In this document: positions 25,525 through 29,771 of the stretch, piece after piece
Numbering within the stretch: the first letter of the stretch is position 1
How the letters are laid out: each line of letters opens with the position of its first letter
UHGV virus genome: UHGV-0098755
Reading direction: 5' to 3' (one strand)
Origin: a virus
Length of the DNA stretch: 64,000 nt
Program-made: the position numbers and the translations under genes
The notes under the pieces: generated by a model
Database searches by the model: none
The model's input: the letters and a program-made list of their open reading frames with translations, nothing else
Told to the model about the DNA's origin: nothing

Positions 25525-25995
25525 CTAGCGATAAAAACCAAAATGACGATTAGCTTCAGCAATCTTTCTTTCTTCTTCGGACATTCTCCAGCGTAGTCCA
25601 ACATCAAAATGAGCCCAGACCATCCTAACAAATGCATTTATATCTTTAATATCTTCAATAATGAATGTTTTACTTTTAGAAGGTTGACTCGCTAATTTAA
25701 CTTTATCGTCTTCAAACAGGTCAAAAAGACCATATTCATGAGCTCTTTTATAGCCTTTAATAGTTAAAGCTTCAGAAGAAGAAAACGGTGAATCAGTATT
25801 CTGCAAAATATCTTCAGTATGCTTTATAATTAGAATAACATTTTCTGGATATTTTCTTTCTTTTATATCTTTAATTAAAATATCCGGATTTTCTGCTAAA
25901 GGAATAATTAATGAGCACTCTTTATCAAGTGTATTTACCGATTTACCTTCTTTAGACATAAATTCTATTGAATAATGTTTTGCTACTTCAATCAT
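25525..25995 (-). CDS. Hypothetical protein (156 aa)
   Basis: ORF. Confidence 0.5.
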
Positions 25996-26148: not shown

Positions 26149-26352
26149 TCATGATTTATCACCGTAAATATCTCTCATCAATTTAAGCGCTGAGCGTTCT
26201 AATTTCTTTTCTTTCTCGGCACTAATCATTGATTTCATCCATTCTTCTGATTCGTTCTGCATTTCTTTATTTGCCTGTTCAACCCAACCATCATCAATAT
26301 ACATTGAGTTTGGTCTATTGAACCATTCAAGCATCTTCTTCAGAACTTTCAT
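26149..26352 (-). CDS. Hypothetical protein (67 aa)
   Basis: ORF. Confidence 0.45.
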
Positions 26353-26824
26353 TTATTTTACCTAAAACAATAGTAGGAGCATAGTCAAATTTATGAATTT
26401 TTAGCAAATTTGGGTTTAAATTATTCCATAAAGAGGTAATAAAATATGATAACGCATTTTCTTCTGTAATTATAAATTTATTTCCCTTATCTATTTTCCA
26501 GTCATATATTGAATCATATGAATATAATGGCAACGGTTTATTGTTATAATATGCTTCGGCAACATCAATATAGTTAGATTTAGTAAATGCTTGAATTGAC
26601 ATAAATGGAGAATTTCGTACAGTTTCAATAATACCAATCTTTTTAAGTTTTATTTCAACATCTTCTGGAACTGGCATTGAAATAAAATCTTCTACTAGAT
26701 ACATGTTATTATCATATCTTTTATCAATCATTACTGCTACTGTAATTGGAATATCTTTAGCAAACGCCATGCTATCACTGCTAATATACATTTCAAACAA
26801 AATCGCTTCCATAATTTTCCTCAA
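26327..26824 (-). CDS. Hypothetical protein (165 aa)
   Basis: ORF. Confidence 0.5.
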
Positions 26825-27162
26825 TCACAAGATGTAGATGAACAACCAGAATCACAAGAACTTCCACATGAATCGCCCGTCCATACATGAACAGGAACAT
26901 TAGTATCATATAAATCAGAACTAGACTGTGTATTCTGCGTATTAGATGATGTAGTAGGTGTTGACCAGCGCCAAGGATTTTTATAATATTCTTGGGCTTC
27001 TTCATAAGTCATAGTAACTGCTTCTACTGTTCCATCTCCCATATAAACATATTCAACTACAGTTAAAGGAAGGTAGTCATTTGAAATAGGAACTACACCT
27101 TCCCCAGGAACTGTAGAGAAAAAATCCGTAAAGAAACTTTTAAACCAATTAAAGATAAACAT
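26821..27162 (-). CDS. Hypothetical protein (113 aa) with Cys/Ser-rich C-terminus
   Basis: C-terminus [18 protein letters not shown]. Confidence 0.5.
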
Positions 27163-27368
27163 TACAAAAAGCCTCTTTTGAATTCGACTTGCTTTTCACC
27201 ATAATCATATCGAATCTCTGCATTAAATTCGACAGAACCATCTGCGTACATCATAAATGAATGCACAACAACTTCTGTAGACCATGGTTGCAATTCATAT
27301 TTCTTCATTACATGCCGTGAAATGATAATATCTAAATCTTCATTTGGTTTAATCCAGCGATTTAACAT
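27162..27368 (-). CDS. Hypothetical protein (68 aa)
   Basis: ORF preceded by early promoter at about 27380-27425. Confidence 0.5.
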   Translation of the reverse strand: MLNRWIKPNEDLDIIISRHVMKKYELQPWSTEVVVHSFMMYADGSVEFNAEIRYDYGEKQVEFKRGFL

Positions 27369-27467
27369 AGTGCTCTCCTCTATAAGATAATTCTATTATA
27401 CCACACTCATTTTGATATGTAAACTGCAAAAACGAAAAAAGGAACCCCGAAGGATTCCTTAAATTAT

Positions 27468-27741: not shown

Positions 27742-27951
27742 TTAAATTACATGACTATTTATAATAAATTCTCGCGGAACGTTAAAATATCCAATTTTAG
27801 TTAATATAACAACATCACCATTAATAATTACCGGAGAATAATCTTCTGGAGCATTAAATTTCCAATGGGCTCTAATATTATATCCATCAGAACCAAATGC
27901 TCGACTAGCCGGTCTCCCGGCTTTTTGCCATGCGTAGAAATCAAATTTCAT
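27742..27951 (-). CDS. Hypothetical protein (69 aa) in the soc-56 interval
   Basis: ORF. Confidence 0.5.
   Translation of the reverse strand: MKFDFYAWQKAGRPASRAFGSDGYNIRAHWKFNAPEDYSPVIINGDVVILTKIGYFNVPREFIINSHVI
27755..27762 (-). promoter_or_regulatory. Late promoter TATAAATA for soc
   Basis: RC TATAAATA about 30 nt upstream of soc ATG, SD AAGGAG. Confidence 0.55.
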
Positions 27952-28142
27952 TTTGAATGCTCTATAATTAATTTTAAAGCTTCTTCACTGACAAAAATTT
28001 CGTCAGGACCTTCTATAACTTCAACCATATGAAGTTGATTAGTTAAGAGCTCACACACGAGCTCTTTGTTATAATCTTTAAATAGCTGGTCAATACGTTT
28101 CTTATGGGCTTTCTTAAGCTGACGTTTATTTAAACGAGCCAT
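27948..28142 (-). CDS. Hypothetical protein (64 aa) in the soc-56 interval
   Basis: ORF. Confidence 0.5.
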   Translation of the reverse strand: MARLNKRQLKKAHKKRIDQLFKDYNKELVCELLTNQLHMVEVIEGPDEIFVSEEALKLIIEHSK

Positions 28143-28724: not shown

Positions 28725-29513
<789 letters not shown>

Positions 29514-29570: not shown

Positions 29571-29771
29571 ATGGTACAAAAATTAATGGCACTTGTTAAT
29601 GCCATCAAAGGTAATAAAAAACGTATAGCTTTTACTATTTCTGCTATGATAGGAATTTTACTTTGGAATTTTGTTTTATCGCCAGTTGCTATTGCTCATG
29701 GCGTTAGTATTCCAGTAGTTACTCTTGATACATTCGTAGATTTAGCATTTGCTTTAGTTGGGTTAATTTAA
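29571..29771 (+). CDS. Small membrane protein (66 aa), + strand within a - strand region
   Basis: Strong SD AAGGAGG; hydrophobic; late-promoter-like GATAAATA at 29541-29548. Confidence 0.5.
   Translation: MVQKLMALVNAIKGNKKRIAFTISAMIGILLWNFVLSPVAIAHGVSIPVVTLDTFVDLAFALVGLI

Follow-up and report, generated by a model that had tools for sequence, protein, structure and literature searches.

What does a 113-amino-acid open reading frame (ORF) on the minus strand of the virus genome UHGV-0098755 encode, and what might the cysteine-bearing end of its product do? The ORF lies at positions 26821-27162 of the window, by which we mean the whole stretch of 64,000 nucleotides that was analysed. A preliminary description of this DNA had noted a hydrophobic N-terminus, a Ser/Thr-rich linker and a Cys-rich tail in the predicted protein, and the ORF is present with the strand, length and terminal sequences given there. 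It is almost certainly a real gene, the orthologue of phage T4 mrh.1. This gene is already known, as a member of DUF7206 and of PHROG 2031, and is without an assigned function. As judged from aligned relatives, what is added here is a family-wide signature, in which the supposed Cys-rich cluster becomes two conserved Cys-Asp units, one of them C-terminal. We regard this as a testable lead; no new kind of element is involved. Many small early genes of T4 are without a function, although it is the best-studied of the lytic phages. Searches of the full-text literature and of the CRISPRi-ART preprint gave nothing on mrh.1, on DUF7206 or on the tail signature. We also considered an early Mosigvirus peptide (Emp) described in a 2026 preprint; by term counts the words 'mrh' and 'cysteine' are absent from that preprint, which probably concerns a different gene.

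The window ORF as T4 mrh.1

The window belongs to a Tequatrovirus (T4-like) genome, and the 2 kb around the ORF are about 95% identical to phages such as vB_EcoM_KAW1E185. The predicted protein matches the DUF7206 family (PF23836) over residues 3-113 (E=1.4e-28, 100.1 bits against a cut-off of 25.6) and phrog_2031 (E=6e-35). The same gene is annotated as mrh.1 in phages UFV-AREG1, T2 and T6. In T4 its orthologue occupies the same slot, as an 'uncharacterized 12.6 kDa protein' between mrh and soc. The T4 protein has the same length and the same four-Cys tail, and 109 of the 113 residues are identical; the differences, with the window residue given before the T4 residue, are V18T, L84S, T95A and G106S. 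All of the family motifs, W-[LIF]-K...F...P, EY.Y.GDG..E.V and S-C-D-S...C-D-COOH, are present in the window protein. A tblastn search with this protein gave matches in 556 phage records, and the 90%-identity cluster containing the T4-type protein has 515 member sequences under the name 'Uncharacterized protein mrh.1'. There is no function on record for DUF7206, so membership of the family is silent on mechanism.

The preliminary description had raised the possibility that an overlapping ORF in the +1 frame (26793-27005, 70 amino acids) is the real gene. This ORF is still open in close Tequatrovirus relatives, because the Ser/Thr codons of mrh.1 give no stops in that frame. In ten distant relatives there is no interruption of frame 0, which ends in the conserved SCD, whereas the +1 frame contains 3-6 stops. 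When six Tequatroviruses are compared, the third codon position of frame 0 has the most substitutions, variable sites at positions 1, 2 and 3 numbering 14, 10 and 23. In the same comparison 18 variable codon columns are synonymous only and 14 have an amino-acid change, and every length difference is an in-frame indel. The frame is kept in relatives down to about 30% identity. We therefore take the gene to be real, since its frame is conserved in relatives and that of the overlapping ORF is not.

Two frameshifted variants of mrh.1 were also seen, each on one contig. One of 141 amino acids (P0006) runs into the +1 frame of the overlapping ORF, and one of 53 amino acids (P0009) runs into the +2 frame. 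Either the sequencing is in error here or mrh.1 is occasionally a pseudogene.

Modules of the DUF7206 family and their C-terminal tail

Searches with a single sequence reached close T-even relatives only, with 7 matches in one search and 11 among 1.8 billion cluster representatives. A profile search retrieved 147 DUF7206 relatives, 115 of them full-length. All relatives with a source name or a fetched genomic context come from T4-like phages. A tblastn search with three members of the family found phages of Escherichia, Shigella, Salmonella, Yersinia, Citrobacter, Klebsiella, Enterobacter, Serratia, Kosakonia, Erwinia and Edwardsiella. These host genera all belong to the Enterobacterales; two further records have names beginning with Pseudomonas. 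For alignment we used 67 diverse members, which are 26-95% identical to the window protein.

In all 115 full-length members the penultimate residue is Cys, and the last residue is Asp in 112, Asn in two and Glu in one; the last three residues are SCD in 103 members. A second Cys is found 4-12 residues upstream of the terminal one in 115 of 115 members, most commonly at 6 or 8 residues and usually in the context S-C-D-S-[SG]. Across the 67 aligned sequences there is little or no variation in S-C-D-S and in the terminal C-D, whereas the linker that precedes the tail cannot be aligned. The feature that defines the family is ...S-C-D-S...S-C-D-COOH. The last 25 residues of family members consist of 40% Ser, 14% Gly, 14% Asp, 8.5% Cys and 7.6% Tyr.

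In the window protein the conserved pair is formed by C103 (S-S-C-D-S-G) and the penultimate C112. A smaller alignment pairs C107 rather than C103, but the local context favours C103. The preliminary description had counted five Cys in 16 residues; there are in fact four (99, 103, 107 and 112), which span 14 residues and are the sole Cys of the protein. C99 and C107 are Tequatrovirus extras, and other members have Ser, Gly, Tyr or Phe at these sites. Conservation of the Cys is therefore family-wide for C103 and C112 only, and a Cys-rich cluster does not define the family. Extra tail Cys are found in several lineages, and the tail has four Cys in T4-type proteins and three in each of two other members (P0055 and P0097). 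There is no conserved CxC or CxxC in any DUF7206 member, the conserved Cys being two only.

The genome had been called otherwise poor in Cys, which is an overstatement. Cys makes up 1.18% of residues in the 98 non-overlapping ORFs of at least 60 amino acids in the window, and this is an ordinary value. It is correct that the tail is the densest Cys cluster in the window. When residues were shuffled among the window ORFs, at least four Cys within 14 residues arose somewhere in 140 of 2000 trials. Clustering of Cys is not compelling by composition alone, and what lifts the tail above chance is its conservation, because all 115 full-length members keep the terminal Cys-(D/N/E) and a second Cys; the codon of Cys99 also carries a synonymous TGT/TGC change in phage T6. 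There is no tandem repeat in the DNA under the tail. The Cys-containing tail that had been singled out is thus conserved and selected.

The alignment of 67 sequences divides the protein into three conserved modules that are separated by linkers of variable length, which cannot be aligned. The first is an N-terminal aromatic amphipathic helix with the family motif M-x(1-3)-[WF]-[LIF]-K-x-[LF]-F...P, in which the K and the F are nearly invariant. In most relatives this motif comprises about nine residues (MIxWLKNLF) and is followed by charged residues and Pro. The second is a beta-hairpin with the motif EY[VI]Y[MV]GDG[MT][MV]E[EA]V, whose Y, G, G and E never vary and whose E, D, E and V rarely do. 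The third is the tail, which is rich in Ser, Asp, Gly and Tyr. All three modules are shared by the 115 full-length relatives. The Ser/Thr-rich linker of the window protein was described correctly (12 Ser/Thr among the 22 residues 67-88). Its length varies through in-frame indels among T2, T6 and SHFML-11 (110-113 amino acids), and members of the Dhakavirus type have a wholly different middle.

A mosaic Mrh.1 of 164 amino acids is present in Escherichia phage 235Ecol030PP (P0003). It has a T4-type N-terminus and the four-Cys tail, and its middle contains about 50 residues (RQPEKAGNVGAGALPLNSKKLKEHL...) that are homologous to the Dhakavirus-type middle. The tail is retained across this insertion. 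A metagenome protein of 71 amino acids on a contig of 576 bp (P0124) has the same tail (...SYDSPSCDSGSSFSGSCD) on an unrelated N-terminus, which itself carries a CxxC (MDNRCSNCGS...). From these comparisons the linker is replaceable, the modules act as movable units, and the tail looks like a portable module. In a search with the 42-amino-acid tails P0124 was the sole protein to pass; the composition correction suppresses low-complexity profiles, so this does not imply that the tail is absent elsewhere.

Structures were predicted with AlphaFold2 and the family alignment for the window protein and for a Dhakavirus-type member. Both models contain a short N-terminal helix, a beta-hairpin with a predicted local distance difference test score (pLDDT) of about 80-86, and then a helix. 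The C-terminal 40-45 residues have a pLDDT below 50 in both runs (residues 67-112). The hairpin region is thus the only part predicted with confidence to fold, and the tail is predicted to be disordered. Known structures and families offered no further match. A search of the PDB with the family profile returned chance matches only (E>1, PKR kinase). Foldseek comparison of the model with the PDB found nothing at E<2, and no meaning can be attached to fold matches here, the models being of low confidence beyond the hairpin. Pfam gave no match other than DUF7206 at E<=1, no PADLOC family (a set related to anti-phage defence) was matched by Mrh.1, and NCBIfam gave nothing above threshold for Mrh.1.

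The N-terminus had been called hydrophobic. A Phe-rich start is present, but it has the character of an amphipathic helix and not of a membrane anchor; its hydrophobic moment is 0.41 in the window protein, with a family median of 0.61 over the first 11 residues. Over 19 residues the Kyte-Doolittle mean rises to 0.84 in the window protein and does not exceed 1.09 in any of the 115 members. The protein contains no signal peptide, membrane segment, signal-peptidase motif or lipobox motif. Its net charge is -11, and family-wide it is about -3. No stretch of 19 residues has the hydrophobicity that a membrane segment requires, so that Mrh.1 is most likely a small, largely disordered protein of the cytosol. 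A partner on which it folds or docks is probable. A disulfide-rich tail, which had also been proposed, is unlikely in a protein without a signal peptide or membrane segment.

What the tail might do

Mrh.1 is best read as a cytosolic early host-takeover protein. We tentatively propose, from the pattern of conservation and by analogy, that it is a docked protein whose disordered arm offers thiol and carboxylate to a metal centre or a redox centre. The N-terminal helix and the hairpin would dock Mrh.1 on a partner, which may be a host protein or the co-translated Mrh.2 or Mrh. The arm would then bring its thiol and carboxylate groups to the centre, where it could serve as a ligand of the metal, for instance by plugging or stripping a Zn/Fe site, or alternatively as an arm for thiol/persulfide exchange. 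The likely outcome would be modulation of a host enzyme during takeover.

The layout of the tail recalls TusE/DsrC, in which a penultimate Cys is likewise carried on a mobile C-terminal arm; E. coli TusE ends ...KPVKCI. In DsrC a second Cys lies ten residues upstream (Cys-x10-Cys), and the second Cys of DUF7206, at 4-12 residues, recalls this arrangement. The likeness is one of layout only, as Pfam, PDB and Foldseek comparisons gave no relation in sequence or fold. The last residue of DUF7206 is also acidic and not hydrophobic, and its arm is far longer and of low complexity.

The R1 subunit (NrdA) of class Ia ribonucleotide reductase has a C-terminal dithiol tail that shuttles electrons from thioredoxin or glutaredoxin. 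It resembles the DUF7206 tail in being flexible, in having a pair of Cys near the end and in its acidic/Ser/Gly context. E. coli NrdA ends ...DDGCESGACKI and T4-type NrdA ends ...EDCSSCKL, compared with ...YDSGSSCDSGxxxSCD in DUF7206. The Cys spacing of 4-12 in DUF7206 is wider and variable, against 2-4 in both NrdA tails that were read. One residue follows the last Cys in DUF7206 and two follow it in NrdA, and the DUF7206 tail is not carried on a reductase. The two have C-[DE]-S-G in common, which is too short at four low-complexity residues to weigh.

The metallochaperones SlyD and HypB have flexible metal-binding tails rich in Cys, His and Asp, with CC, CxC or CxxC motifs. They resemble DUF7206 in having an unstructured terminal segment with metal ligands, which in DUF7206 are putative. 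The tails of SlyD and HypB are denser in Cys and His, whereas DUF7206 has two conserved Cys and no His.

Several points weigh against the proposal of a thiol or carboxylate arm. Only two Cys are conserved, and the CxxC and CxC of classical metal sites are absent. The mechanism is drawn from the conservation pattern and from analogy, and neither DsrC/TusE nor ribonucleotide reductase emerged as a homologue from profile searches of Pfam and the PDB. The likeness of C-E-S-G in the NrdA tail to C-D-S-G could be chance. The Asp beside each Cys would be expected to lower thiol reactivity, which disfavours a redox shuttle. Synteny in T4-like genomes alone is no proof of a functional link with mrh or srh. 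The constant C-terminus might just as well serve as a recognition tag, with no thiol chemistry involved.

A more specific form of the proposal, in which the tail is a thiol arm that invades a host active site, is distinctly unlikely. It might act as a plug of the 'cysteine-switch' type, in which the thiol and the terminal carboxylate would ligate the catalytic Zn of a host metalloenzyme such as FtsH. Alternatively it might be a decoy for Cys-arm relays of the host, namely the TusE-type transfer of persulfide to tRNA or the circuit that links thioredoxin/glutaredoxin to the NrdA tail. FtsH, the sigma-32 protease, comes into consideration because the neighbouring mrh and srh are sigma-32-related. 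The naming of FtsH, the IscS/Tus relay or the thioredoxin/glutaredoxin circuit as targets is speculation.

Among the alternatives, the one that survives best is that the tail is a recognition tag, and we consider it rather unlikely. The ...S-C-D-COOH would be read by a protease, an adaptor or a binding pocket, as a degron or docking peptide; the low-complexity Ser/Tyr/Asp stretch would give reach or weak multivalent contacts, and the helix and hairpin would be the active parts. In 115 of 115 members the motif keeps a constant position with respect to the C-terminus, which is typical of C-terminal recognition peptides, and the Ser/Tyr-rich composition is typical of low-complexity interaction regions. 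This explanation also accords with a tail predicted to be disordered and with the hairpin as the most conserved and sole predicted folded element. It leaves unexplained the invariant Cys at both positions and the extra Cys in several lineages, and we know of no E. coli system that reads a C-terminal Cys-Asp.

Binding of metal by the tail, as the preliminary description suggested, is plausible. It is unlikely that Mrh.1 is a self-contained metal-sequestering peptide, similar to a metallothionein or metallochaperone, that would bind Zn, Fe, Ni or Cu, perhaps in dimeric form, and would thereby buffer or withhold metal during infection with no specific protein target. Flexible Cys-bearing termini are typical of metallochaperones, the two C-D pairs could provide sulfur and oxygen ligands, and the four Cys in 14 residues of the T4-type tail and the acidity of the window protein are in keeping with such a role. 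The small number of conserved Cys, the lack of CxC/CxxC and the weaker family-wide charge speak against it. Stoichiometric binding by one small early protein would moreover be a weak strategy, and the conserved, docking-like helix and hairpin would have no explanation.

The tail had also been considered as a modified peptide. Mrh.1 would then be the precursor of a ribosomally synthesised and post-translationally modified peptide (RiPP), with the N-terminus as leader and the Ser/Cys-rich C-terminus as a core bearing thiazole/oxazole, lanthionine or thioether groups. We find this highly improbable. The leader-like N-terminus, variable middle and Ser/Cys/Gly-rich C-terminus fit such a precursor, and residues 95-109 give a faint compositional match to the FxLD lanthipeptide precursor model (E=0.2). 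However, this match, to TIGR04363, is the only one to a precursor model and reaches 11.7 bits, far below the cut-off of 30. In eleven related loci no gene for a cyclodehydratase, dehydratase, radical-SAM maturase or peptidase/exporter is present among the neighbours that were annotated or scanned with Pfam, and, going by the T4 gene catalogue, T4-type genomes are not known to carry RiPP-modifying enzymes. An export signal is also lacking in the protein, and a length of 80-150 amino acids with a folded hairpin is atypical of a precursor.

It is extremely improbable that Mrh.1 is exported or membrane-anchored, with the N-terminus as signal or anchor and the tail disulfide-bonded in the periplasm. 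The T4-type N-terminus is very rich in Phe, and several T4 periplasmic proteins use disulfides, but the hydropathy maxima given above are well under what a membrane segment needs, and the short N-terminal motif of most relatives runs directly into charged residues and Pro, with no motif for signal peptidase or lipobox processing. That mrh.1 is not a real gene, the overlapping +1 ORF being expressed instead or the region being non-coding, is scarcely conceivable given the conservation of frame 0, and the proteins that read the +1 frame are single-contig frameshift variants only.

Some further candidates were dropped. A Ser tail like that of siderophore microcins, a phosphopantetheine site (GDS) and an N-terminal beta-clamp-binding motif offered no test or fit, and a zinc-binding anti-sigma motif (H-x3-C-x2-C) was set aside for want of a conserved His.

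For the arm proposal, the tail signature provides a simple mutable handle for finding the target, namely C103, C112, D113 and extension of the C-terminus. Should ligation of a host metal or redox centre by the arm prove correct, host takeover would gain a new mode and peptide inhibitors a minimal scaffold. If the arm invades an active site, Mrh.1 would belong to a new class of small phage takeover proteins, whose active element is a disordered C-terminal Cys-Asp peptide. If the arm reading is false, mrh.1 is one more conserved small phage ORF.

The mrh.1 locus

The coordinates of mrh.1, of the parts of its product and of the features around it are collected in Table 1.

Table 1. Features of the mrh.1 locus, with positions in the window
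Feature	Position	Strand	Basis
mrh (T4_MRH family), directly downstream of mrh.1	26327..26824	-	Pfam PF24070, E=3.2e-40
mrh.1 coding sequence, 113 codons and TGA	26821..27162	-	ORF list; Pfam DUF7206; phrog_2031
Mrh.1 tail, residues 93-113, conserved C103 and C112	26824..26886	-	115-member statistics; alignment
Mrh.1 Ser/Thr/Asn/Gln-rich linker, predicted disordered, residues 67-92	26887..26964	-	in-frame indels; pLDDT <50
Mrh.1 beta-hairpin and short helix (predicted), residues 34-61	26980..27063	-	alignment; AlphaFold2
Mrh.1 N-terminal aromatic amphipathic helix (predicted), residues 1-15	27118..27162	-	AlphaFold2 helix 2-14; alignment
TAATG, mrh.2 stop overlapping mrh.1 ATG	27160-27164	-	read from sequence
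mrh.2, 68 amino acids, phrog_1873, directly upstream of mrh.1 with a one-base overlap	27162..27368	-	
Shine-Dalgarno-like AAGAGG, 9 nucleotides upstream of mrh.1 ATG	27172..27177	-	read from sequence
Sigma-70 promoter-like site upstream of mrh.2	27395..27423	-	consensus scan, 11/12 matches
Intrinsic-terminator-like hairpin and T-run after soc, between soc and the mrh.2 promoter-like site	27439..27460	-	

On the minus strand the order is soc, the terminator-like hairpin, the promoter-like site, mrh.2, mrh.1, mrh and srh. The promoter-like site consists of TTTACA, a spacer of 17 nucleotides and TATAAT, with an extended -10 element formed by an upstream TG. It is likely to be the early promoter of a mrh.2-mrh.1-mrh-srh unit, in both function and timing a reading of the DNA motifs. 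The mrh.1 TGA lies inside TGAGGAAAATTATG, which runs into mrh; in relatives the start of mrh is annotated at an ATG that corresponds to 26812, 9 nucleotides past the mrh.1 stop. This arrangement suggests a co-transcribed and translationally coupled unit that would be expressed early. The gene mrh.1 is probably an early gene, because it lies downstream of a near-consensus promoter.

The order soc, mrh.2, mrh.1, mrh is the same in UFV-AREG1, T4, T2, T6 and SHFML-11. More widely, genomes of the Tequatro-, Dhaka-, Mosig-, Karam- and Kanagawavirus-like types were compared. In every related genome fetched DUF7206 lies in the slot soc, small ORF(s) or mrh.2, DUF7206, T4_MRH, ADP-ribosyltransferase, Dda helicase. 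A recognisable Mrh.2 homologue is encoded upstream in genomes of the Tequatro-, Dhaka- and Mosigvirus types. The neighbours of mrh.1 are srd, modA, modB, modA.3, srh, mrh, mrh.2, soc, 56 and 61, and their Pfam matches are to the T4_MRH, Soc, Mod_ADP_RT and helicase families only. Searches of the PDB with Mrh.2 and Mrh found no solved structures.

Mrh.1 and Mrh.2 both start M-x(2-4)-W-[FIL]-K. BLASTP gave no alignment between them, so an apparent DG[ST]VE similarity is unsupported and the shared part is the short N-terminal W-[IL]-K motif only. In an Enterobacter phage the gene upstream of DUF7206 (L010:2789-3004) starts ...KLNPLPWIKNWL, which is almost the same as the N-terminus MKMNPLPWIKSWF of another DUF7206 member (P0082). 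From these sequences the N-terminal peptide seems to have been shared or swapped between the two adjacent genes.

Mrh contains no Cys. Mrh and ModA.3 (25525-25995, minus strand) belong to one family (T4_MRH, or phrog_1234 in the annotation of relatives), so two paralogues flank srh and modA.4.

Gene content around soc varies among close relatives. The window has soc.1/soc.2-like ORFs and dam (27742-28142 and 28725-29504, minus strand), UFV-AREG1 (L001) has no dam between genes 56 and 61, and in the T4 record gene 56 and soc are separated by a homing endonuclease (L005:247-921). On the opposite strand, between dam and gene 61, the window contains an ORF for a strongly hydrophobic protein of 66 amino acids (29571-29771, plus strand), which is annotated as 'hypothetical protein' at the corresponding sites of UFV-AREG1 (L001:5232-5432) and WG01 (L002:112-312). 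In an Enterobacter T4-like phage an ordinary soc is adjoined by a gene for a protein of 504 amino acids, which combines a Soc domain with a GDSL lipase domain (L010:1224-2738).

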